From assembly GCA_051002135.1 (NCBI GenBank), contig JBPCMQ010000004.1, positions 2,095-66,094 on the forward strand: a stretch of 64,000 nucleotides of DNA, in the 5' to 3' direction. The stretch is from Chloroflexota bacterium (lineage in GTDB: Bacteria > Chloroflexota > UBA5177). A program made the translations under genes and the position numbers. Position 1 is the first letter of the stretch. Every line of letters begins with the position of its first letter. This document shows, in pieces, positions 1-13,932 of the stretch. The notes under the pieces were generated by a model. That model made no database searches. It was not told the origin of the DNA and saw nothing but the letters and a program-made list of their open reading frames with translations.

Positions 1-1669
1 CGGCCGACTGGCACTCGTATATGACTTGATGGAGCCGCTCCGTCCAGAGGTCGATCGGTATGTGTTGGAAGTTGTTCGAGAGCATACGTTTGCGCCAAAT
101 GATTTTCTGATCACAGCGCGGGGAATGGTGCGCCTGCATCCGCAAACCTATAACACCGGCAACGACTTCATCTACCGAGATGACTACGCACATCCCCTCG
201 ATGCTTACCTCGTCTTAACGGGCCAAAAGGACTTGGATGGAAACCTATTAACGAGTAACCCCGAGACAAGTGGACGTTATCACTCGTCATGGCTTTCGAT
301 GATGTATCCCCGCCTTTTCCTTGCGCGTCAACTCTTACGAGAGGACGGCGTCATCTTCGTGAGCGTCGATGACCACGAAGAACATGACTTACGTCTCCTG
401 ATGAACGAGATCTTCGGGGAAGAGAACTCCCTGGGCACGCTCGTGTGGCAATCAAAGAAAGGGGGTGGCGGCGACAGCGGAAATCTAGTGCAGGATAACG
501 AGTATGTTCTCTGTTATCGCGGAACCAATAACCCACATTGTCTATCGAGGGTTGAGATCGCAGCAGAAGAATTGGATAGGGTGGACGTGAAAGGGCCGTA
601 CCGAAGAGGACGGGAGCTTAATAAGTGGGGTTCTGGTTCGAGACGCGACGATCGTCCTACGATGTATTTTCCCATTCCAGGCCCCGACAGCAATAGCGTG
701 TACCCCATCCGGAATGACGGCAGCGAGGGCCGTTGGAGGAAGGGCCTCAAGAAAATGCTGGCTTTAGTGAATCGAGGCGATGTGGAGTTTGAACAAAGAC
801 CAGATGGAAGCTACATCGTATACGAAAAGATTCGATCAGCCGATCCTCGCTTGAAACCATACCGGACGTGGCTCACCGATGTGGGCACAACAGCCGATGG
901 GTCGAAGACTGTGAAGGAGTTGTTTGACGGTCGCTCCGTCTATGACTACCCGAAGCCGGTTGCGCTCCTCAAGCGTCTCATCTTCATGGGCACAAATGGT
1001 GATGATGACTTAGTTTTAGATTTCTTTGCTGGATCTTGCACTACCGCTCAGGCTGTTCTCGAACTGAACCGTGAGGATGAAGGATCAAGGCGGTTCATCT
1101 GTGTACAGGTACCTGAGCCGTCACCGCTTAAATCCGAGGCACGAAAGGCTGGTTACGGAACGCTTGCCGACGTTGGCAAAGAGCGCATCCGGCGAGTAAT
1201 GTTTCGCATGAATCAGGACAGTGCAAGTGCCCTTGACCTCAGGGAATCTGACGAGCCCGAGGACCTGGGGTTTAGGGTTCTCAAACTCGTTCAGTCGAAC
1301 CTGCGAGGCTGGAATGCAGTTGCTGCTGGTACTTCACCGACTGAATACGCTAGCCAGCTTGAGATGCTCGAAGATCCTCTCGTGCCAGGGTGGATGCCTT
1401 TGCAGGTCATCTATGAGATTGCCATTAAGGAAGGCTTGAGCCTGACGTTCGCGGCAGAAGAGGCAATCGTGGACGGCGTCACGATCTGGAACGTGACCGA
1501 TGACCAGACTGGACAGGGAATCAAAATATGCCTTGACGATGCCCTCTGCCTGGACACGGTTCGAGCTTTGGATCTGACCAAGGAGGATCGATTCATCTGC
1601 CGTGATATCGCGCTCGATGACACAGTCACGGCGAATCTCGCCCTCCAATGTCACTTGAAGACGATCTAG
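1..1669 (+). CDS. mod: Type III restriction-modification DNA methyltransferase (Mod subunit), 5'-partial: the reading frame is open to the window edge
   Basis: C-terminal FxGxG-like SAM motif 'LVLDFFAGSCTTAQAV'. Beta-class N6-adenine methyltransferase architecture, with the expected DPPY motif lying upstream of the window. Its stop (1667-1669) abuts the GTG start of the downstream res gene. Confidence 0.8.
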   Translation, partial: GRLALVYDLMEPLRPEVDRYVLEVVREHTFAPNDFLITARGMVRLHPQTYNTGNDFIYRDDYAHPLDAYLVLTGQKDLDGNLLTSNPETSGRYHSSWLSMMYPRLFLARQLLREDGVIFVSVDDHEEHDLRLLMNEIFGEENSLGTLVWQSKKGGGGDSGNLVQDNEYVLCYRGTNNPHCLSRVEIAAEELDRVDVKGPYRRGRELNKWGSGSRRDDRPTMYFPIPGPDSNSVYPIRNDGSEGRWRKGLKKMLALVNRGDVEFEQRPDGSYIVYEKIRSADPRLKPYRTWLTDVGTTADGSKTVKELFDGRSVYDYPKPVALLKRLIFMGTNGDDDLVLDFFAGSCTTAQAVLELNREDEGSRRFICVQVPEPSPLKSEARKAGYGTLADVGKERIRRVMFRMNQDSASALDLRESDEPEDLGFRVLKLVQSNLRGWNAVAAGTSPTEYASQLEMLEDPLVPGWMPLQVIYEIAIKEGLSLTFAAEEAIVDGVTIWNVTDDQTGQGIKICLDDALCLDTVRALDLTKEDRFICRDIALDDTVTANLALQCHLKTI

Positions 1670-4369
1670 GTGGCTCTGATGGAATTCAGATTTGACGCCA
1701 ACCAAGCGTTCCAGACAGAGGCGGTCGATGCAGTCGCTGACCTCTTGGATGGTCAACCCCTCGTCACACCTGATCTGACCCTTGCCCTAGGTGGCGGATT
1801 TGCCGCCGTTGGGAACCGGCTGGACTTGAGCGAGGGGACGATCCTGAACAACTTGCGGAACTTTCAGGAGCGAAAGGGCATCGAGGTAGATAAGACACTG
1901 AACACTATCGATCAAGATATCGAGACGGCTGACGGTAGGAAGCTGGTCAGCTTCCCCAACTTCTCCGTGGAAATGGAAACTGGTACCGGAAAGACTTACG
2001 TCTACATCCGAACCGTTCTCGAACTCTTCTCGCGCTATGGTCTCCGCAAGTTCATCGTGGCGGTGCCCAGTGTCGCGGTGCGGGAAGGTGTGCTCAAAAC
2101 CCTGCGCATGACGCAGCAGCATTTTCGGGAACTCTATACCAACGTTCCCTATCGGTACTACGCCTACAACTCGGAGAACTTGACGCAGATCCGGAGCTTC
2201 GCTTTGTCAGACAGTATCGAGATCATGATCATGACGCTCGATTCGTTTAACAAGGCGGGAAACGTATTTTGGCGAAGCACGGATCACTTGCAAGGCGAGA
2301 CACCGGTTCATCTCGTCCAGGCCGCTCGCCCCATCCTCACCCTTGACGAGCCGCAGAATATGGAGAGCGAAAAGAGCATCGCGGCCCTGGCTGCACTCGA
2401 TCCTCTCTTCGCTCTCCGGTACAGTGCGACCCACCGCAACGCCTACAACCTCGTGTATCGCTTAACACCCTTCGATGCCTACCGACAGGGCTTGGTGAAG
2501 CGGATCGAGGTTGCCTCGGTGGTCAAGGACGATGACTTCAATCAAGTCTTCTTGCGGCTGGAGGATATCAAGGCGCAAAAGAAGACAGTCTCCGCTCGCC
2601 TCGCGGTCCACCAACTCATGAAGGACGGCAGCGTCAAAGAGAAGGTAGTCACGGTCAAGCCTGGAGACTCGCTGGAGGACAAGACTAAACGACCGGAGTA
2701 CGCTAGCTTCGTTGTTGACGAGATCAACCCTGGTAGCGAAAGCGTGTGCTTCGCGAACGGGATCGAGATCGGGCTTGGAGAATCCCAAGGGGCTGACAAG
2801 GAAGCGGTATTCGAAGCGCAGATCCGGTACAGCATCGAAGAGCATTTCCGAAAGCAAGCTCGGCTGAAACCGCACGGCATCAAAGTCCTCTCGCTCTTCT
2901 TCATTGACCGAGTAGCGAACTACGCCTCCGAGGATGGCATTATCCGGCGTCTCTTCGATGCGCAGTTCGAGTCGATCCGGCAGCGGTATCCCGACTGGTC
3001 GGATATCGATTCGGCTTCTGTGCAAGCCGCGTACTTCGCTCAACGTCGCTCTACGGGGGGAGAGGTCATCTACGAGGACAGCACGACTGGCGCGGCAAAG
3101 AAGGACGAGGAGGCATACGACTTGATCATGAAGGACAAAGAGCGGCTACTCTCCTTCGATCAGCCGGTCTCGTTTATCTTCTCCCACTCGGCCCTCAGGG
3201 AAGGATGGGATAACCCGAACGTCTTTCAGATCTGCACATTGAACCAGACAACGTCCGAGATGAAGAAGCGCCAGGAAGTCGGTCGTGGGATGAGGCTGGC
3301 GGTGGATCAAACGGGCGAGCGTGTCTGGGACGAGCACGTCAATATTCTGACCGTCGTGGCAAACGAGAGCTACGACCGCTATGTCTCGACGCTCCAACAG
3401 GAAATCGAGGCCGACCACGGCAAATCGGGGCTGCCGCCGAGGCCGAAGGATGCGAGGAAGCGGGGAATTGCTCGTCTCCGCAAGGAGTACACGCTGCGAC
3501 CGGAGTTTCAGGAGCTATGGCAGCGGATAAGTCCCAAGACCCGATATGCGGTTCGCGTTGACACCGAGACGCTCATCCAGCAGGTGGTCGGAGACTTGGA
3601 CAAAGTTCAGATCCGTCCTCCCCAAGTCGTTGTGTCCAAGGCGCGGGTGGCGGTCGATGACGAGGATCGTCTGCATTCGATTCGGCTGACCGGTGACAAG
3701 GGCGTGCTGGATCTGAGCAAACGGCACACCCTCCCCAACGTCATCGGCATCATGACCCACCTGCTGGAATTCACCACTCCACCGATTCGTCTCAGCCGAT
3801 GCACCTTGCTTGAGATCTTTCGGCGCACGTCGAATCAGCAAGCGGCACTCTCCAACCCTCAAGAGTTTGCCGCGGTGGTGGTCCAGATCCTCAAGTCCCG
3901 CCTAGCGGATCAACTCGCCGACGGCATCCAGTACGAGAAGATCAACCAGTGGTACGAGATGACCCAGTTCGACGCCGAGATCGAGAGTTGGGAGGACCAT
4001 CTCGTGCCGGCGGACCACGCCCTCTATGACTACGTCATCTACGATTCAGCCGTCGAGCGGCAGTTTGTAGAGGATCTCGAAGGCCGTGATGACGTACGCC
4101 TCTACATCAAGCTGCCGAACTGGTTCAAGGTGCCGACTCCGGTTGGAGAGTACAACCCAGACTGGGCAATCGTGATGGAGGATCGCGACGAACACGCCGA
4201 CACGAATGGCAAGCCGCTTCTCTATCTGGTGAGAGAGACGAAGTCCACTACGAACATGGACGATCTGCGACCCGATGAGCGCAGGAAGATCATTTGCGGT
4301 GGGCGGTTCTTCAGGGAAGCTCTAGGCGTCGAGTACACCGTTGGTCCAGAAGCCGCCACACTACCATGA
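1670..4369 (+). CDS. res: Type III restriction enzyme Res subunit (SF2 helicase + PD-(D/E)xK nuclease)
   Basis: Walker A 'METGTGKTYVYI'. DEAH-like motif II 'LTLDEPQNM'. Helicase C motifs 'REGWDNPNV...QEVGRGMRL'. C-terminal nuclease motif 'YNPDWAIVMED...VRETK'. GTG start immediately after the mod stop. Confidence 0.85.
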   Translation: MALMEFRFDANQAFQTEAVDAVADLLDGQPLVTPDLTLALGGGFAAVGNRLDLSEGTILNNLRNFQERKGIEVDKTLNTIDQDIETADGRKLVSFPNFSVEMETGTGKTYVYIRTVLELFSRYGLRKFIVAVPSVAVREGVLKTLRMTQQHFRELYTNVPYRYYAYNSENLTQIRSFALSDSIEIMIMTLDSFNKAGNVFWRSTDHLQGETPVHLVQAARPILTLDEPQNMESEKSIAALAALDPLFALRYSATHRNAYNLVYRLTPFDAYRQGLVKRIEVASVVKDDDFNQVFLRLEDIKAQKKTVSARLAVHQLMKDGSVKEKVVTVKPGDSLEDKTKRPEYASFVVDEINPGSESVCFANGIEIGLGESQGADKEAVFEAQIRYSIEEHFRKQARLKPHGIKVLSLFFIDRVANYASEDGIIRRLFDAQFESIRQRYPDWSDIDSASVQAAYFAQRRSTGGEVIYEDSTTGAAKKDEEAYDLIMKDKERLLSFDQPVSFIFSHSALREGWDNPNVFQICTLNQTTSEMKKRQEVGRGMRLAVDQTGERVWDEHVNILTVVANESYDRYVSTLQQEIEADHGKSGLPPRPKDARKRGIARLRKEYTLRPEFQELWQRISPKTRYAVRVDTETLIQQVVGDLDKVQIRPPQVVVSKARVAVDDEDRLHSIRLTGDKGVLDLSKRHTLPNVIGIMTHLLEFTTPPIRLSRCTLLEIFRRTSNQQAALSNPQEFAAVVVQILKSRLADQLADGIQYEKINQWYEMTQFDAEIESWEDHLVPADHALYDYVIYDSAVERQFVEDLEGRDDVRLYIKLPNWFKVPTPVGEYNPDWAIVMEDRDEHADTNGKPLLYLVRETKSTTNMDDLRPDERRKIICGGRFFREALGVEYTVGPEAATLP

Positions 4370-4407
4370 CCGCCGTTCTGCCCCCGACCCAAAGTCTGCC
4401 GTAAAAG

Positions 4408-5703
4408 ATGACCAGAGACGACCCGACACTTCTCGGTCGAGGATTGCAGGGTAGCAGCCCTCCGCACCGTGACGATCACAAGCGGGTACTCGTGCCGCTT
4501 GAAGCCTGGGAATACAACTCGCCCTTGCTTAAGATTGAAGGGAAGAGAACGGACCTGGGACTCCTGGCAGAAGCACTCCTGTATTACGACCAGGTCTTCG
4601 TCGATATTCAAAGCGAGCACCAACTCGAAGACCTCTTGCGTTGGGCAATCGAGCGCGACCATATTAATTCGCTGCTTACCTTAATTCATGAGGGCGTGCT
4701 CAAGTTCCACTATCACGCTTTCCTCACCACTGCGGTAAGCACCGAAGGGGTTTTCCGATTACTCCATATCGAGGATACAGCGCAAGCACGAGGGGCCTCC
4801 TTCCCTGAAAAGATCATTTACCGCGCCGATTACTCGTGCCTCCACGCGAGGAAACAGAGGGCTCTCATCCAAGAAATAGAGCGGAACTACGTGGAGGCGA
4901 AGGTAGATAACTACGAACTCCCAATTGAAGACGCCAGACGAGCGTTAGGTGACCCCGAATACTGTAGCCAGTTACTTCAGACATTCATTGATGACCTGTA
5001 TCGCGGTCTCCACCTGGGCAAGCCCCCGCAGGTTTCCTGCGAAATCGAGCAAGTTAGTCCGGAGACCTACACGATCAAGTGGAATACCGACTTCACCCAG
5101 ATCACAAACATGACCTCTGGAAAGCTCGACTTTCGTCCGGACATTCCGATCATCGGTGAGGCTCACACCAACCGCTGCATCATGACTGCCATTCGCAATG
5201 GGCTGGATCTTTCTCTCGGCGATGTGATGGCTACCCTAGCTGGCAACAAACTGGTCGAGGCAAGCGAGCACTCAGGTCGAGTTAGAGAGATCATACAGGA
5301 ATTGAAGATCGAAGTGGAGTTCCCAGACGTGCGCGGACTCGTCAACTCCGGCGACATGTATCTCGACACGGTGCTAGAAATTCGGGCGAAATCGAGCAAA
5401 TTCCGAGGGTGGCTTCAGCAGGAAGGCGACAAGGATCGCAATGCGCTGTCAGCGTATCACAACGAAGTTGCGCAAGCGTCGGGCGTAGCTAAGCAAGGAG
5501 TCGCGACCTTAAAGTTATTCGGAATCCTTAGTTCAACTGGTGCCGCCGCTGCGCGGGTAGTCGATCCAACTGGCGCTGTCAGCACTGCTCTAACCGCCAC
5601 CACAGGTGTCACTAATTTTCTCGGATTCATCGGAGACCGGCTCGTGAAAGATTGGAAGCCGGTTGTGTTTGGGGACTGGGTAAAGAAGCGTCTGGACAGT
5701 TAG
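4408..5703 (+). CDS. Hypothetical protein, third gene of the type III R-M operon (no recognisable domain)
   Basis: 431-aa ORF with an ATG 38 bp after the res stop, on the same strand. Visibly lower GC than the rest of the window. No motif I can assign. Confidence 0.6.
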   Translation: MTRDDPTLLGRGLQGSSPPHRDDHKRVLVPLEAWEYNSPLLKIEGKRTDLGLLAEALLYYDQVFVDIQSEHQLEDLLRWAIERDHINSLLTLIHEGVLKFHYHAFLTTAVSTEGVFRLLHIEDTAQARGASFPEKIIYRADYSCLHARKQRALIQEIERNYVEAKVDNYELPIEDARRALGDPEYCSQLLQTFIDDLYRGLHLGKPPQVSCEIEQVSPETYTIKWNTDFTQITNMTSGKLDFRPDIPIIGEAHTNRCIMTAIRNGLDLSLGDVMATLAGNKLVEASEHSGRVREIIQELKIEVEFPDVRGLVNSGDMYLDTVLEIRAKSSKFRGWLQQEGDKDRNALSAYHNEVAQASGVAKQGVATLKLFGILSSTGAAAARVVDPTGAVSTALTATTGVTNFLGFIGDRLVKDWKPVVFGDWVKKRLDS

Positions 5704-6018
5704 GATCGGCGCATGCTCCTCCCCCAACGCATCTCCGCGTGCGCCGGCTGCTTCCTACAGAACGCCCGCTTGTCGCCCGGATTTGCCCACGCCTCGACTA
5801 CTGCCCAAGCTGCCTGCTTGCGTCGATCAGGCACTGACTTGTCACGGCGCGAAAGGGTGCTTGAAAGAGTTATCAACGTGTTTGTCTTTGCGAAATCGAA
5901 GAGCATCACGGAGACATTATCTTTTAACCACCACGCATTCACTCCGTGTAGTCAAAAATGGTGCCTTGAGTAGATAACGCTATACCCCGCCGTCCGTCCC
6001 AGCCCCTATGGTTCAGGC

Positions 6019-6132
6019 TGTCCATGACGGAGATCGTACGCGTCGCGTGCGTCTTCCCCTGCGACACGCACGGCCTGTCCATGACGGAGATCGTACGCGT
6101 CGCGTGCGTCTTCCCCTGCGACACGCACGGCC
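6019..6132. repeat. Near-perfect 57-bp tandem direct repeat, 2 copies
   Basis: 'tgtccatgacggagatcgtacgcgtcgcgtgcgtcttcccctgcgacacgcacggcc' occurs at 6019-6075 and again at 6076-6132. Each unit contains an imperfect internal inverted repeat. Confidence 0.9.
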
Positions 6133-6363
6133 ACGGGGGGTAACCTCTCACTCGCTTCAAACTGACGGTCGTATCTTGACACCTTCTATTTGTCAAGTGT
6201 TCGGCTCGACGTGCGCCGCTGGCTAAGTCGTGTCAAGCCTTGATGTGATCCCGTCTCTCACTCCGTCAATCTTTCCCATGTCAAGTTGACACGGGTACGT
6301 CTCTATGCATGGTCGTGGATTGAGCGACACTACATCAACTCACCTTCGGTGTGTCACTGAGGC

Positions 6364-6556
6364 CACGGGCGCTCGGTCCCACGGCCCGCACAGAGCCTCA
6401 GAGAGCCCGATTCATCGACCCACACGGGCACCCGGACGGCACGCCCCACGTCCTCGCGGACAGCACGGGCACTCGGTCCCACGGCCCACACGGGTCCATA
6501 AGAGCCCGATTCTACGATCCTCACGGGCACTCGGACGGCCCGGAAGTATTGACAGG
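6364..6556. repeat. Degenerate ~95-bp tandem duplication built of four 'CACGGGCRCYCGG...' half-units
   Basis: Units 6364-6463 and 6464-6556 align by eye ('cacgggcgctcggtcccacggcccgcaca...agagcccgattc...cacgggcacccggacggc'). The duplication ends in a perfect 9-bp-arm hairpin, GGAAGTATT-N8-AATACTTCC, at 6541-6566. Confidence 0.7.
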
Positions 6557-7107
6557 GTAATACTTCCATGCGATGAACGCAACATGAATCGGAGGGACAC
6601 TCGCCACCCCTCTAACAGGAGTACACCAACCATCGCCGGTGCGCCGCTGTTCTCGCTCTGTCAATCCTAGCAGGTCGCATGAAGTCTTGCTCTGTTCATG
6701 CTGCAGGCGGGCGTAGAGCGTGCCACAAGGCGCCCCTACCGTTTCGCAAGGAGTGCCCGATGGCAATTGCACAAATGGACCGCGGCACAAAATGTCAGCC
6801 GAAAGTCGTCCGACTGACGCCGAGCACACTTGACACGCTCGATATCATGGGGGACTGCCTGCTCAACTTCTCGTTGGAGCAGCGGCAGAGACAACAGCGC
6901 CGAGGCGGAGGTCCACCCGTGAGCTACGCGCTCGCGCTGGGAAACGCGGTGCACGAAACTGTCGCACAGATGAATCGTTTGCTCGCGGCCGGACGCCCCC
7001 TCCCGCCGCCCGTTCAAGAAGGTCGCGCCAGTGGCTTGATGGCATTGATTCGCAACATCCGGCGCGAGTCTGCCGGTCTTAGACGGACGAGAAGCCGTGT
7101 TGGCCGC

Positions 7108-9684
7108 CTACGGCCAGCGCACCCTCGCGTAGTTCCAAACCTCTTCCATAGACAGCGCCACCGTTTGGTTGTTGGCTCGAATGAACAACTGCTGCCCTTT
7201 GTCGTCGGTCACAAATGCGGGACGGGGCGAAGGCTTGATGGAGACTTCGCACACCTCTTGGCCGCTCGCATTGGGGAAGGTGATGCGGATGAACGCGCTC
7301 AAGTCTTTCCCGTAGGCGTTCAGCAATAGGTTCGTTAGGTGTAGCTCGAAGCCATCGCGACCAGGCTTCTTGGTGAGCGACTCGTAGTCGTGTGCCAAAC
7401 CCAGGGCCGTCCCGATGTCGTCAACCCCGATCAGCAGGACGCCGCCTGCCACCGAGTTGAGGAAGCCGGCAACGGTCTTCACGATGACCTTCTCGAGCAC
7501 CGGATTGACCTTGTTCTCCCGCATATCCCAACGTAGGGAGGACTTGAACTCGAGTGTCTCGCTCTCTCCTCCGGCGATCAAAGCGGCCACGCCAGACGCG
7601 GGCGCGGGAGCAGGGGGCGCGGCGCCAAGGTAGGTCAACTCCCCGAGCTGGGCCGGCTGCAGCTTGTCGAATTCTTTCTGCAGAACCTTTAGGTATCGCC
7701 ATTCAATGCCGGTTAAGAGGGTCGCGTTCTCGCACCAGATCTGGGCCGCGCGGTCCTTGTGCGCAACGTCAATATCCTCTCGCCCCTTGGTCTCGATAAG
7801 ACAGTGAATCTCGTCGGCGGAAACGGCGACGAAGTCGGGCTCGTAGTACCGGAGGTTGGCGGCGGCGTCTGTGTACTCGATCGTGAAGCCGAATTGAGAG
7901 GGCATCTTGGCGAACCGGAGCACGTCGCTCGCGTCTTCGAGAAAGCCGGCAAACTGTCGTTCGAACTCGTTGTCGCAGGCAACGAGGTTGAAGACGGTCT
8001 TCGTAGCGGGTCGGGTCGGACGCGAGAAGGGGAAAGGCAAGACCTGCGAGAGCCGGCGATCGCTGAGGATGAGCTCGGGTGTCTGCTGCTCAATGACAAG
8101 GGCGCGAAGCGCTGCCGTGAAGGATTTGACGGTGACGTACTGAGCGACGCTCGTGGAGATGGCCTTGAGAATGATCGGGTCGTAGAGGTCGGCGGGCTCG
8201 CCAAAGGCGCGTTCCGCGAGAAATTCTCGTACCTTGGGGACTAAAGCCGCAAATTGAGAGGGCAGCTTGACATCTTGCGCGATCCGCTTTGCATAGTAGG
8301 AAATGACTTCCTCGGGTGTCTGGACCTCGGGTATGCTGTAGTCGCGGTCGACGACCTTCTCTAACGTGATGATGTCGTAGCCCTCGTAATGGAACTCCTT
8401 GGCGGCGGCATCGTTCTGCGTCTTGGGCAGGGGAGGGCACGTCATCTCGCGGACGTTGAGGCCCTCGATCTCCTCGGTGAGGGTCTTCTTGCGGGACAAG
8501 ATCGGACTCAGCTGAGGCATGGCTATGTCCTTGCCGAGCTTGTCTTCGTCAGGCTTGATGACGACGATCTTGACCTTGTCGCCGGTCAGATCGAAGGTTC
8601 CGAGCTCGAGCACCTCGTCACGCTCCAGCTGTTCGACGAACTCGATAAAATTCTTGTTGCCTATCACGTCAACGCGCTCTTGGTACAGATTGCCCAGGTC
8701 GCGAAACATGAGGCGAAGGCCGCGCCCCACGGTCTGCTCGGGAAGAATATTGGCCTTCGCCTTGTATGGGCGTAGGCCGACAACGACCGTGACGTTCTGG
8801 ACGTCCCACCCCTCCCGCAACATAAGCACGCTCACGATGGCATTGACGGGACTCTCAGCCTCGTCAACCTCGCGAGCGACCCGCCGGGCAATGTCAAGGT
8901 CCTTGTCTGAGACCTCTCCGGACCGTTTCGTGTGGATCACCAGAAGTCTGTGGCCTCCAAACTCGCTCGGGTACTTTGTTCGGAGATAGTCTCCCACGTC
9001 ATCGGCCTCGCTCGTGTCGTGCATCATGACGAAGAGGATCGGCGTCTTTCCGAGTGGCTCCAGCTGCTCGCGATACTCGCGCCAGCGCTCCACGGCAGCC
9101 GTCAAGTAGGCCTGGTAGCGTGTGCTGGCGACGTCGGATGGCTGTTCTCTAATACCCCTCGCGATGCCCTTCATCGGCCGCTTCACGACATTGTCAAGGA
9201 TAGCTTGCTTGAGCGGATAGTCATAGACGGTCCAGGTAAAGAGACTGCCCTTGGGGTACCGAGGCGTGGCCGAAAAATCTAGTTGGGCCGCGAGACCTCC
9301 CGGGTTGTCCACGTGGAGGCGACGGATCGCCCGGCTCCACTCGCTCTCCTCGTCGTGCGTGTGATGAGCTTCGTCGTTGATGACAAGGCAGGGAGACTTG
9401 CGCGACGCGATGCGCTCGTCGAAGTCGTCGATATCAGACATCTTCGCCGGCGGCTTCGGGCCGAGGACCGCCGTCATTGCCTCGGGTTCGCCGTCGGCGC
9501 CATTGACCGAAGACCGATCATAAATCTGCTGTATGTTCGTCAGGTAGAGCGCGCCTTCCGACCCGGCACGTTCATTTTCACCCCTGAGATAAACGTCGAC
9601 GTCCCAGAAGATTTGGAAGTCCGGCGGGATCACCGGATCGGATCGGAAGACACGGCCGGCCGCGAAGTCTAGACGGGGTGGCTA
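7108..9684 (-). pseudogene. N-terminally truncated SF2 helicase-nuclease (type III Res-like) with a C-terminal AlbA_2/Schlafen-like domain
   Basis: The frame opens only ~16 codons above a GTG at 9633. DEAH box 'LVINDEAHH' lies ~90 aa from the N-terminus and no Walker A is present. Helicase C 'LMLREGWDVQNV...QTVGRGLRL'. PD-(D/E)xK 'YEPDFVAV...IETKG'. C-terminal 'ESETLEFKSSLRWD...' is the AlbA_2 signature. Confidence 0.6.
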
Positions 9685-9781
9685 ATGTTCGTACCTAAGT
9701 GCACGTACAAGGATCCTTGTTCGGAGAGAAGCTCATGGATAATCAGCAGTCTCTCATACATCATCTGCAGGTAGGAGTCTA

Positions 9782-11503
9782 GATTTCGGCATTCTCGAGG
9801 AGGCCGAGATCGACGAGGCGCAGGAGGCCAAGCTCGGCCGCCTCTTCGCCCAGCAGTACGAGCTGATCACCCGCGAGGAGCGCCTCGATATCGTGGGCCG
9901 GGACATCGTCGACCACTTCCTCGGCCGCGGCTTCGCCGGCAAGGCCATGGTCGTCTCCATCGACAAGGCCACCGCCCTCCGCACCTACGACAAGGTCCAG
10001 AAGCACTGGCAGGCACGACTCTCCGCCAAACTAGCCCGCCTCGCGAACGATGCACTCTCTGAAGAGGAAGCAGAGCTCCTCCACGAGGAGATCGCGTGGA
10101 TGCAATCCACCGACATGGCGGTCGTCATCTCCTCCTCGCAGAACGAGATTGCCGAGATGGCGGAGCGTGGACTCGACATAACCTCGCACCGGCGGCGGAT
10201 GGTCGAGGAGGATCTCGACGAGAATTTCAAGAATCCGGCAAATCCCCTGCGGATCGCCTTTGTCTGCGCCATGTGGACCACCGGCTTCGACGTGCCCTCC
10301 TGCTCGACCATCTACCTCGACAAGCCGATGCGCAACCACTCCTTGATGCAAACCATCTCCCGCGCCAATCGCGTGTTCCCCGAGAAGAACAACGGCGTGA
10401 TCGTCGCATACGTCGACGTCTTCCGCGATCTCCAGAAGGCGCTGGCGCTCTACGCGGTCACCGGGGGCATCGGCAAGGGGGCCATCGACACTGGTGTCCT
10501 CCCCATCGAAGAGAAGGCCGTCTTGGTCGACGAGCTCCGGGACGCGGTGGACGATGCGGTCTCGTACTGCTCGAACCGAGGAGTGCTTCTTGGCGCTCTC
10601 ACCGGCCTGCAGGGGTTCGAATTCGTCCAGGCGGCCGGCGACGCCGTCGAGCAGCTGATCGTCAACGATGAGGAGAAGGCGGCATTCCTCGACCACGCCA
10701 AGCTGGTCGACCGGCTCTTCAAGGCCATCCTGCCCGATCCCAGCGCCTCCGAGTTCGGCCCGATGCGGGGGGTCCTCGTCCACCTGTCCCGCACCATCGC
10801 GGACTTCTCGCCGCGGGTCGACGTGAGCCCGGTTCTGCGTCGCGTCGAGCAGCTCCTCGACGACTCGGTTGCCGCCAAAGCCTACGTGATCCACGAAGAC
10901 CGCGCGCCCTATCAGATCGACCTCAACGACGTGGACTGGCAGGCGCTCGAGCAGACCTTCCAGCAGGGTCACAAGCGCACCGCGGCCGAGCGGCTCCGAT
11001 CAATGCTGACCACCCGCGTGATGAACCTCGCCCGCCTCAACCCGACGCGGACCGACCTCCTCGAGCGCTTCCAACGACTGATCGACGAGTACAACGCGGG
11101 CTCGAGCAACGTCGAGGAATTCTTCCAGCGGCTGATCGCGTTCACCAAGGACCTCACCGCCGAAGAGCAGCGTACCGTCGCTGAGCATCTTACCGAAGAG
11201 CAGCTCGCCGTGTACGACCTCCTGATGCGTCCCTCGCCCGAGCTGAGCGACGCCGAACAGTCGCAGGTCAAGCGGGTCGCCGAGTCGTTGCTCGACGTCC
11301 TCAAACGCGAGAAGTTGGTCCTCGACTGGCGCAAAGAGCAGCGCTCCCGCGCCTCGGTGCGGCTGACGGTCGAGGAGAAGCTGGACGAGCTGCCGGAGAC
11401 ATTCACCCGGCAGCTCTACGCACAGAAGTGCGACGTCGTCTACCAGCACGTGTTCGACAGCTACTGGGACGACGGGCAGAGTGTTTACGACCGGGTTGCA
11501 TGA
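9782..11503 (+). pseudogene. hsdR: Type I restriction enzyme HsdR, C-terminal fragment lacking the nuclease domain and helicase motifs I-II
   Basis: HsdR-specific motifs 'IVDHFLGRGFAGKAMVV' and 'LRIAFVCAMWTTGFDVPSCSTIYLDKPMRNHSLMQTISRANRVFP'. The frame opens at 9743 after a TAA. There is no start codon before 9893, and homology begins around 9782. Confidence 0.7.
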
Positions 11504-11625: not shown

Positions 11626-11934
11626 TTACGCGAGAGGCTCGCCTTCGAGTGGAATCTTGGCTTCTGTCCAGCGTATCGAGTAGCGCGCTGCGGCACGCCT
11701 AACGACTCCGTACGACGTTCGTGGATTGCTGTGCTGAATCCTGATGTGATCTTGGATTAGATCGAGGAGCACTTCGTCAACAGATTTATCGCGCCGCTCA
11801 GCCATCTCGTCGAGTTCGAGGTAGTCGACTATTGGCATCTTCAAATAGATCGCCGTATCAGTAGGCGCCGTCTTCGGACGCGCCCGCTCGGTGACGCGAA
11901 TGTATGGCTCGTGCTTGTCCGGCTCGGCGCTCAT
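11626..11934 (-). CDS. Ribbon-helix-helix antitoxin (BrnA-like) of a type II TA pair
   Basis: 102 aa. A beta-strand followed by helices 'TAIYLKMPIVDYLELDEMAERRDKSVDEVLLDLIQDH'. Its start overlaps the upstream toxin stop (ATGA, 11931-11934). Confidence 0.5.
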   Translation of the reverse strand: MSAEPDKHEPYIRVTERARPKTAPTDTAIYLKMPIVDYLELDEMAERRDKSVDEVLLDLIQDHIRIQHSNPRTSYGVVRRAAARYSIRWTEAKIPLEGEPLA

Positions 11935-12290
11935 GTCAGGCTACGCTTGAAGTCCCAGTACATACCTTCATAGTACTTACTATCGGGCTCATAGGCTGTC
12001 CATGCAAGCCAAACTCCCCGATGATCAGAAGGCACGAGTGCAGTTAGCAGAAATCGGCCCTTGCGTGTGTAGCCAAGCATTATGAGAGGCGCTCCCCGGT
12101 CTCCTTCCGAATAGCCCGTGTTGTACGCGAACTCGGCGCCGTTTGGGTCTTGATAGCACTGCAAGACCTCGGCGAATCGGACACGATGATCCCCGAGCTG
12201 AACGTGATCATCGAAGTTCGCGTCTCGCACGATCTCGTCAACGCCACCGTACCGGTCGAAGTACCAATTAGCGTCTTCCACTCCGCGCAT
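11931..12290 (-). CDS. BrnT-like toxin (DUF497 family ribonuclease)
   Basis: 119 aa. 'DHVQLGDHRVRFAEVLQCYQDP' matches the DUF497 pattern W..N..KHGV.F.EA..VF.DP, and 'GRFLLTALV...RGVWLAWTAYEPD' matches GRLL.VV.T.R..IRIISAR. Toxin-first gene order as in brnTA. Confidence 0.55.
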   Translation of the reverse strand: MRGVEDANWYFDRYGGVDEIVRDANFDDHVQLGDHRVRFAEVLQCYQDPNGAEFAYNTGYSEGDRGAPLIMLGYTRKGRFLLTALVPSDHRGVWLAWTAYEPDSKYYEGMYWDFKRSLT

Positions 12291-12714: not shown

Positions 12715-12830
12715 GAGGTGCAGCTAGGGGAGCGCGTTTTTCGCGCTGAGAGTGTGGCTGAGGCCGCAGACCCTTGAACCTGATCCGGGTAATTCCGGCG
12801 TAGGGAAGACTCCAAGCGACTTTCCGCTCC
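12715..12830 (+). promoter_or_regulatory. TPP (THI-box) riboswitch
   Basis: 'ctaGGGGaGC...GCTGAGAgtgtggctgaggccgcagACCCTTGAACCTGATCCGGGTAATTCCGGCGTAGGGAAG' is a near-consensus THI element, sitting directly upstream of the 12841 operon. Confidence 0.85.
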
Positions 12831-12840
12831 CACCTGCGGT

Positions 12841-13932
12841 GTGAGCGGTTATTTTTTGGAGAGTCGTGTGCGGGGTGAGCTGAGACCGGCTGCCGGCAAG
12901 GTGTCGAGCTCGCTGTTCGAGCGGGTCATCAAGCCGTCGCTCGGCGCGGGTCGCCACGACGTCGTGGTGGGTCCGCGGTCTGGGGTCGATGTGGGCGTTC
13001 TCAATATTGGGAGCGGACAGGTCATGGTGCTGACCTGCGACCCGCTGTTTGTCATGCCGGCATACGGGTGGCGCCGCGCGGCCTGGTTCGCGGTTCATAT
13101 CGTTGCTTCAGACGCGGCGACGTCGGGTCTCTGCCCCAGCCTCTGCGCGATCGACCTGAATCTCCCTCTGGACATGACCGACGACGAGCTGGCCCTTTTA
13201 TGGGAGGGAATCCACGAGACCTGCCGGGACACCGGCGTCGCTATCGTAACCGGACACACCGGAAGGTACGAAGGGTGTGCGTACCCCATGCTGGGCGCGT
13301 GTACGATGATGAGCATCGGCTCCGCGGATGGATACGTGACGCCGGACATGGCCCGCGTTGGGGACGAGGTGGTCATCACCAAGGGTGCGGCCATCGAGAC
13401 GACGGGGCAGCTGGGCGTCGTTTTCGAACGTCGCATATGCGATGCTCTCGGTCCCGACGTTGCGCGTGAAGCCGCCGCGCTGTTTTTTCACATGTCCGTC
13501 GTGAAGGATGCGTCCATTGCCGCCGAGATTGGGGTACGCGACGCGGGCGTCACGGGCATGCACGATGCTACCGAGCGCGGTGTGTGGGGCGGGCTGGTGG
13601 AGATCGCGGAAGCAGCGGGGGTGGGATTGACGATCGATGGTGACGCCATTCCGGTTCGACCGGAGGTCGCTGCCGTTTGCGGTCTCTTCCGTATTGATCC
13701 GTTCACGGCGAGCAGCGAGGGGACGCTCCTCATCACCTGCCGGCCATCGAAGGCGGCATGCCTGGTCCAACGACTGCAAGATGAGGGAATCCAGGCCGCA
13801 CGCATTGGCGAGGTGCTGCCGCCGGAGTGTGGGCTGTCCGTGACACTCGAGGGCCGCGCCACTCGCTTGCAGTCTCCGGAGACGGATCCCTTCTGGCCCG
13901 CGTTCACGGCTGCCCTCGAGGAAAGCCGATGA
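12841..13932 (+). CDS. AIR synthase-related protein (PurM-like superfamily; HypE/ThiL-like fold), first gene of the TPP-riboswitch operon
   Basis: 'VHIVASDAATSGLCP' and 'GVAIVTGHTGRYEGC' match PurM-like N- and C-domain signatures. It lacks the SelD Cys/Sec loop. Confidence 0.7.
   Translation: MSGYFLESRVRGELRPAAGKVSSSLFERVIKPSLGAGRHDVVVGPRSGVDVGVLNIGSGQVMVLTCDPLFVMPAYGWRRAAWFAVHIVASDAATSGLCPSLCAIDLNLPLDMTDDELALLWEGIHETCRDTGVAIVTGHTGRYEGCAYPMLGACTMMSIGSADGYVTPDMARVGDEVVITKGAAIETTGQLGVVFERRICDALGPDVAREAAALFFHMSVVKDASIAAEIGVRDAGVTGMHDATERGVWGGLVEIAEAAGVGLTIDGDAIPVRPEVAAVCGLFRIDPFTASSEGTLLITCRPSKAACLVQRLQDEGIQAARIGEVLPPECGLSVTLEGRATRLQSPETDPFWPAFTAALEESR

Follow-up and report, generated by a model that had tools for sequence, protein, structure and literature searches.

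The 64-kb window analysed here (64,000 nucleotides (nt) of a contig from an uncultured Chloroflexota bacterium, to which all positions refer) holds between 7108 and 11503 the remains of two restriction-modification (R-M) systems whose restriction genes stand head-to-head. The locus consists of three gene remnants and two junctions: the remnant of a type-III-like restriction subunit gene on the minus strand (res', 7108-9675), a fragment of its cognate DNA methyltransferase gene on the same strand (mod, 9676-9785) and the remnant of a type I restriction subunit gene on the plus strand (hsdR', 9786-11503). An earlier, sequence-only reading had described the locus as two N-terminally truncated restriction motor genes facing each other, left as a deletion scar in a defence island. 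Domain content and the alignment to full-length homologues corroborate the truncation of both genes, with res' lacking residues 1-167 and hsdR' lacking residues 1 to ~493, and its reading as a scar left by deletion or rearrangement, in a region that is variable and rich in defence genes, stands as well.

The annotated minus-strand open reading frame (ORF, 7108-9633) starts with GTG, codes for 841 aa and was deposited as 'RNA-binding domain-containing protein'. Its frame stays open for 16 codons beyond the GTG until a TAG at 9682-9684. The DEAH box lies about 90 aa from the N-terminus, at residue 87 (9364-9375), and the later helicase motifs are retained too, while a motif search for GxGK[ST] found no Walker A in the product; the sequence-only reading had described this gene accurately. 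Pfam analysis of the 841-aa product gave, in this order, a partial ResIII match (profile positions 91-163 of 164 only, below the gathering score), RE_endonuc (PF19778, E 3.1e-7, residues 545-637, ~7723-8001) and a C-terminal Schlafen/AlbA_2 domain (SLFN_AlbA_2, PF04326, E 3.2e-14, profile positions 1-117 of 118, residues 690-827, ~7153-7566).

A database search returned full-length Res homologues of 1022-1035 aa with 57-73% identity, which carry ResIII, RE_endonuc and SLFN_AlbA_2. Their GSGKT Walker A motif is situated at residues 124-135 and thus within the 167 aa that are absent from res'. In the alignment the homology of res' reaches ...RLDFAAGRVFRSDPVIPP, corresponding to residue 168 of the homologue P0002 and to position 9675 of the window, and from there res' is colinear with P0002 residues 168-1021 at 73% identity, so that the remnant comprises residues 168-1023 of the ~1023-aa homologues. 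All Res homologues with at least 57% identity retain the N-terminal 167 aa, and the protein database contains no Res relative between 73% and 100% identity. Compared with a complete type III Res subunit, res' preserves motif II, the later motifs and the endonuclease domain and has lost motif I, and with it a complete superfamily 2 (SF2) helicase core, as well as an adjacent functional mod; the Schlafen/AlbA_2 domain is present.

The homology ends of res' and hsdR' are 110 nt apart (9676-9785). The sequence-only reading had placed the two 5' ends at a distance of only ~60-100 bp (9685-9781), which is close to this value; the stretch itself, however, is derived from coding sequence and represents a Mod remnant of the N6_N4 DNA methyltransferase family with 33-35 codons (LDSYLQMMYERLLIIHELLSEQGSLYVHLGTNISH). 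On the minus strand it encodes LDSYLQMMYERLLIIHELLSEQGSLYVHLG…, the translation of the spacer being LDSYLQMMYERLLIIHELLSEQGSLYVHLGTNISHPV. In a translated comparison against the fetched loci it matched residues ~124-156 of the 596-aa Mod that is encoded immediately upstream of res in the homologous locus L004 (60% identity over 33-35 aa, tblastx E 1.7e-11), and a search of the whole window with this Mod recovered the same stretch (tblastn E 3.7e-8, aligned core 9684-9782). The Pfam profile N6_N4_Mtase was matched at positions 25-56 of 221 with E 0.009. The fragment resembles the L004 Mod more than it resembles the intact type III Mod of the window itself. Its orientation is that of res', its reading frame is another one, and it terminates at a stop.

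All full-length loci that were examined (L004-L007) have mod directly upstream of res on the same strand, and the spacer fragment is therefore found at the position and in the orientation expected for the cognate mod. The remnant carries no catalytic motif because it begins downstream of the IDPPF motif seen in the L004 Mod; neither the catalytic DPPY/F motif nor the AdoMet (S-adenosylmethionine)-binding fold of N6/N4 methyltransferases is present in it. An upstream continuation of the truncated genes, which the sequence-only reading allowed that it might have missed, does exist in the form of this fragment, but it rescues neither gene. The locus thereby cautions against the assumption that a short 'spacer' flanked by gene fragments is intergenic.

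The spacer has a lower G+C content and contains several 6-bp palindromes. A perfect 14-nt palindrome, ACAAGGATCCTTGT, is located at 9707-9720 inside the mod remnant, where it forms the codons for ..EQGSLY.., and is probably coincidental. A structured RNA or DNA element was considered for this region and dismissed: the DNA fold z-score of -1.88 is unremarkable, Rfam gave no match in the spacer, and the palindrome is mod coding sequence. When metagenomes were scanned for a 21-mer of the mod stub, the single match was a ~40%-identical unrelated Mod that shares the 21-mer by chance.

On the plus strand the hsdR' frame opens at 9743 after a TAA, and its first start codon is the GTG at 9893, from which an ORF of 536 aa extends to 11503. 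The product contains the second RecA-like motor domain (T1R_D3-like, PF22679, E 7.5e-18) and the C-terminal helical domain (T1RH-like_C, PF11867, E 2.8e-31) of type I HsdR subunits, and it aligns with positions 513-995 of 1029 in the PADLOC model REase_I and with positions 471-669 of 674 in TIGR00348. The nuclease domain HSDR_N (PF04313), which is present in P0156 and other full-length homologues, was not detected by Pfam in the hsdR' product. P0156 is the closest HsdR (91% identity at the amino acid and 88.6% at the nucleotide level over the retained part) and the third gene of an hsdM-hsdS-hsdR operon on L003, a 19-kb contig of a Chloroflexi metagenome-assembled genome (MAG). The nucleotide homology to the L003 hsdR begins abruptly at 9786, corresponding to residue 494; there is no start codon at this boundary, and the 50 nt to the left of 9786 exhibit no similarity to the L003 hsdR.

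In the L003 HsdR the Walker A motif is found at residue 310, DEAH at 410 and TGTP (motif III) at 437, all before the break at 494. With the homology of hsdR' starting only at this residue, the nuclease domain and the first motor domain are therefore missing in full. The sequence-only reading had identified the plus-strand gene as a type I HsdR whose frame opens without a start codon after motif III and which has become an orphan, and the comparison bears this out: a tblastn search with the L003 HsdM and HsdS revealed neither hsdM nor hsdS in the 64-kb window. Thus, the second motor domain and the C-terminal helical domain of a type I HsdR are in place, whereas the nuclease domain, the first motor domain and the cognate partner genes are missing. 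No homologues that naturally start at the positions where res' and hsdR' begin were found. Those database entries for HsdR that consist of the C-terminal part alone owe this to the end of a contig or to a frameshift that splits the gene.

HsdR homologues in other lineages (P0251/P0143, P0127, P0247) are split by frameshifts near residues 480-500, close to the break in hsdR'. P0251 (488 aa with an out-of-frame tail) and P0143 (565 aa), for example, are each found on ~20 contigs of up to 119 kb. These splits could mark a recurrent frameshift hotspot.

Two junctions connect the three remnants. At junction 1 (9672-9681) mod codon ~160 is joined out of frame to res codon ~168, its exact base being uncertain as the nearest homologues are only ~70% identical. 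At junction 2 (9783-9788) hsdR codon 494 on the plus strand is joined to mod codon ~122 on the minus strand in opposite orientation, and the bases CGA/TCG can be assigned to either side. Read along the minus strand, the order is consequently hsdR antisense, junction 2, mod codons ~122/124 to ~160, junction 1 and res from codon 168 to its stop. With the homologues used as a ruler, junction 1 implies a loss of ~1.8 kb, made up of ~1.3 kb of the 3' part of mod and ~0.5 kb of the 5' part of res. Junction 2 implies the loss of ~0.37 kb of the 5' part of mod and, if an L003-type operon was once complete here, of ~4.3 kb from the start of hsdM to hsdR codon 493; if the two operons were divergent neighbours, the total amounts to at least 4.7 kb, including 1.48 kb of hsdR, and also takes in any DNA that separated mod from hsdM.

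The sequence-only reading had attributed the absence of both 5' ends to one deletion or recombination event. A single simple deletion of this kind would have removed them together with everything in between and left ~100 nt of intergenic or filler DNA. The head-to-head geometry, the short distance between the homology ends and the lack of partner genes in the window would fit such an event. It predicts one junction, however, and two are present; furthermore, the 110 nt constitute an internal mod coding fragment in native orientation to res, with mod sequence missing on both sides. An internal mod piece between two junctions therefore cannot result from a single simple deletion and calls for two deletions or one complex event, and we consider the one-deletion explanation highly improbable.

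In our view the locus is very probably the non-functional wreck of two R-M systems, shaped by at least two breakpoints and situated in the accessory part of an uncultured Chloroflexota genome. The first system would have been a type-III-like mod-res operon on the minus strand, whose Res combined a helicase, a PD-(D/E)xK-type endonuclease and a C-terminal Schlafen/AlbA_2 domain, and the second a plus-strand type I operon, hsdM-hsdS-hsdR. The most economical ancestry would place the two operons back-to-back, most likely as res<-mod | hsdM->hsdS->hsdR. From such an arrangement one loss of ~1.8 kb would have run from inside mod to inside res, and another, of at least 4.7 kb, would have started in the 5' part of mod, taken hsdM and hsdS with it and ended within hsdR. 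The two losses may have been successive deletions, or a single complex event of break repair or template switching may have caused both and retained or copied 110 nt of mod.

Several observations weigh against this reconstruction. The searches returned no allele in which the arrangement is intact, and the adjacency of the two operons would have to be deduced; the hsdM of L003 is preceded by unrelated plus-strand genes, and mod does not stand beside a type I system in L004-L007. In a comparison with syntenic loci in related genomes, as the sequence-only reading had proposed, the nearest relatives among the GTDB species genomes are only 55-59% identical and share the downstream operon and nothing upstream, where the DNA is variable, and the ancestral arrangement was not recovered. 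The sources are moreover incomplete MAGs, and the missing 5' parts could sit elsewhere in the genome after an inversion or translocation. Both long ORFs are fully intact, which would fit a retained function too. Finally, both junctions abut the same octamer, AGTCTAGA, and a plain model of two deletions does not account for the octamers.

One copy of this palindromic, XbaI-type octamer (9666-9673, plus strand) lies immediately to the left of junction 1, where it forms part of the minus-strand ..R-L-D-F.. of res, and the other (9776-9783, plus strand) immediately to the left of junction 2, where it forms part of the minus-strand ..L-D-S.. of mod. The octamer occurs exactly twice in the window, its TCTAGA core five times. 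For comparison, among random pairs of points 100-120 nt apart in the window, 1.6% were accompanied within ±10 nt by an exact direct repeat of 8 nt or more; the share fell to 0.06% with the repeat required to end 0-4 nt to the left of both points. The placement could be due to chance, or to template switching or breakage at the palindrome.

The octamers bear on the second of the two routes, a single complex event as a special case of the preferred reconstruction, in which a microhomology-mediated template switch or break repair captured a local mod piece of 110 nt. Templated insertions in microhomology-mediated break-induced replication are short, local and in native orientation, and the retained fragment has just these properties; in addition, both junctions lie directly beside the only two octamer copies in 64 kb, at an empirical chance of 0.06-1.6% depending on how strictly the position is defined. 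On the other hand, both octamers look native to the genes in which they stand and their repetition may be a coincidence, and two ordinary deletions would lead to the same end state. We therefore retain the complex event as a tentative possibility, somewhat on the unlikely side.

Non-random breakpoints could also arise if the DNA was broken specifically at TCTAGA, then resected on one side and rejoined by end-joining or template switching. Such breakage could be caused by self-restriction through a type II enzyme or by another palindrome-targeting nuclease. We regard this as improbable; if true, the locus would be a trace, left in nature, of a defence nuclease that destroyed the defence operons beside it.

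A miniature inverted-repeat transposable element (MITE), an insertion sequence (IS) remnant and a target-site duplication were also tried as explanations of the octamer-flanked stretch and rejected. No other copy of the stretch was found in the window or in the fetched loci, and terminal inverted repeats are lacking inside the octamers. The right-hand octamer accounts for the conserved L-D-S of Mod and is hence native, as the left-hand copy appears to be in res, and the pair is therefore not a target-site duplication. The codons for MMYERLL explain a loose likeness to a Tn5-type end.

The opposite orientation of hsdR' relative to the mod and res remnants is what an inversion between two same-strand genes would produce, and a 12-nt inverted repeat with 11 of 12 positions matching (9663-9674 and 9777-9788) extends across the octamer copies and both junctions. 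In an inversion or translocation the 5' halves of hsdR, mod and res would survive elsewhere at reciprocal junctions. The missing 5' parts are, however, not found in the 64-kb window, and among the 5.8 billion proteins of the database no N-terminal HsdR fragment of ~90% identity turned up other than the intact P0156; the gap between 73% and 100% identity among the Res relatives speaks in the same direction. Furthermore, an inversion alone would not create the second junction between mod and res. Inversion or translocation appears improbable, and two losses from neighbouring operons remain the preferred explanation.

The scar recurs in other assemblies. The exact 841-aa protein and the junction are also contained in two further Chloroflexota MAGs, on the contigs L001 (from GCA_036816325.1) and L002 (from GCA_003244175.1), in which 130 nt around the junction are 100% identical to the window. 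Over 4110 nt, L002 and the window differ at a single position. L001 is identical over 1216-10314, and all of its 53 differences fall into 10315-10681; from 10315 onwards it is 100% identical to the intact L003-type hsdR until its contig ends at 10736. L001 ends here either in a chimera or in a recombined tract, which shows that the same sample also contains an hsdR allele of the intact type. A test for selection via L001 was abandoned for this reason, the differences being confined to the chimeric or recombinant tract and uninformative on res'; the three available copies are identical across res' and contain no information on selection.

These assemblies also address the question of an artefact, either a chimeric metagenome assembly or a scar engineered in the laboratory. 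The spacer is indeed lower in G+C and rich in restriction sites (XbaI, BamHI, PstI and, at its far end, XbaI once more), and further downstream L001 demonstrably ends in a chimeric or recombinant stretch. Nevertheless, the junction is identical base for base in the window and in two other environmental MAG assemblies, assemblers do not join on 8-nt overlaps, and the 'polylinker-like' stretch translates into a conserved Mod segment. An artefact of assembly at the res|mod|hsdR junctions is accordingly very unlikely. A laboratory deletion cassette with XbaI, BamHI and PstI sites was rejected, and an engineered origin is excluded, as the sources are environmental MAGs and the stretch encodes a conserved Mod segment. 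Taken together, the chance that either kind of artefact produced the scar is almost negligible.

With respect to function, a type III Res without Walker A cannot bind or hydrolyse ATP and without Mod has no partner for DNA recognition, and a type I HsdR cannot restrict without its nuclease domain, its first motor domain and the M2S complex. Since the window holds a Res without Walker A and Mod and an HsdR without nuclease domain, first motor domain and M and S partners, both systems have probably lost their function. A promoter scan found no sigma-70-like promoter in 9300-10200, weak evidence given that promoters of Chloroflexota may deviate from this type; together with the absence of essential domains and partner genes, this agrees with the statement of the sequence-only reading that both genes lack promoters. 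The frames, in contrast, are well preserved: stop-free stretches of 857 and 573 codons would be expected by chance with a probability of about 4e-12 and 2e-8, respectively. Both long frames are open and colinear with their homologues, and the inactivation is therefore likely to be evolutionarily recent, or, less likely, the products are still used.

In the latter case the 841-aa product might act as a stand-alone nuclease and the C-terminal half of HsdR might work together with a separately encoded N-terminal half. Besides the open and colinear frames, the existence of split HsdR genes in other lineages would be in line with this, and so would the Schlafen domains that are described as active effectors in other prokaryotic defence proteins in two reports (PMC13462974; bioRxiv 10.64898/2026.05.29.728809). 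The lack of a sigma-70-like promoter and of any obvious ribosome-binding site ahead of the GTG at 9633 argues otherwise, as does the N-terminal part that every Res homologue with at least 57% identity has kept. The other HsdR splits, furthermore, are frameshifts with both halves present, whereas the N-terminal half is absent here, and the identity of the three copies across res' is no help for either view. A retained function of the truncated genes is hence quite improbable, and recent inactivation is the reading we favour.

Among known systems, res' stands nearest to type III R-M (Mod plus Res, EcoP15I type), its branch being closest to NCBIfam NF046055 'BPTD_3080 family restriction endonuclease' and to PADLOC REase_III (PDLC03648). 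It shares with these the SF2 helicase core with DEAH, the C-terminal PD-(D/E)xK-type endonuclease (PF19778) and, in the full-length relatives, a mod immediately upstream. In the window, unlike in type III systems, res' begins at residue 168 and mod is reduced to a stub of 33-35 codons, and the score of res' against the curated family is 135.8 against a cut-off of 800 bits. The hsdR' remnant resembles type I HsdR (TIGR00348, PADLOC REase_I PDLC03040) in its second RecA-like motor and C-terminal helical domains and departs from it by the lack of PF04313, of the first motor domain and of hsdM and hsdS in the window.

Truncation, frameshifts and the loss of partner genes are frequent in R-M systems, Helicobacter and Neisseria being examples, and such decay is commonplace in variable regions. 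The locus is like other decayed R-M genes in islands in that it combines truncated R genes without M partners, variable DNA and intact defence genes nearby; an internal mod stub between two opposed R remnants and the position of both junctions beside the same octamer set it apart. As ordinary R-M decay it is of little importance except for a correct annotation, in which the 841-aa ORF is better read as a Res pseudogene remnant and the HsdR piece as a pseudogene. It is nevertheless a clean example of defence-island turnover, in which two R-M systems were apparently inactivated together and a neighbouring third one, of type III, stayed intact.

The parent family of Res proteins with a C-terminal Schlafen/AlbA_2 domain, of which P0002 and P0004 are intact members, is more interesting than the scar. 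Only ~9 of the 120 best Res homologues (those of 1022-1035 aa) carry this domain, the others having ~850 aa without Schlafen, and the proteins with this Res-Schlafen fusion form a sub-branch of the type-III-like restriction enzymes that is uncharacterised. In the fusion of SLFN_AlbA_2 to a defence enzyme it is similar to the Schlafen defence proteins, i.e. CRISPR-associated Schlafen ('Cash') and SLFN-pAgo. It differs from them in that its partner is a type-III-like Res helicase-nuclease, which is not known to be active and is truncated in the copy of the window.

To the left of the scar the window contains a canonical, intact-looking type III pair on the plus strand, consisting of Mod (26-1669, PADLOC MTase_III 3e-120), whose ORF may begin upstream of the window, and Res (1670-4369, REase_III 2.9e-238). 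It is followed by a plus-strand ORF of 431 aa (4408-5703) without a Pfam, NCBIfam or PADLOC match and by ~1.4 kb (5703-7108) without a family-assignable gene or Rfam match, in which a perfect 57-nt tandem duplication (6018-6131) and imperfect repeats with a period of ~100 nt (6364-6542) were observed. To the right of hsdR', two small minus-strand ORFs of 119 aa and then 102 aa (11626-12290), which overlap by 4 nt, exhibit a toxin-antitoxin-like layout and match no Pfam, NCBIfam or PADLOC family. They are situated between hsdR' and a thiamine pyrophosphate (TPP) riboswitch on the plus strand (12716-12823, RF00059, 67.4 bits, E 5e-12), which is followed by an AIR-synthase-like gene (12841-13932) and by ABC-transporter genes. 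This thiamine-type operon is syntenic in the distant Chloroflexota MAGs L008, L011 and L012, and everything to its left is not. The relatives keep the downstream operon and nothing upstream of it, and the scar therefore lies in variable DNA, of which the TPP riboswitch operon is the right edge.

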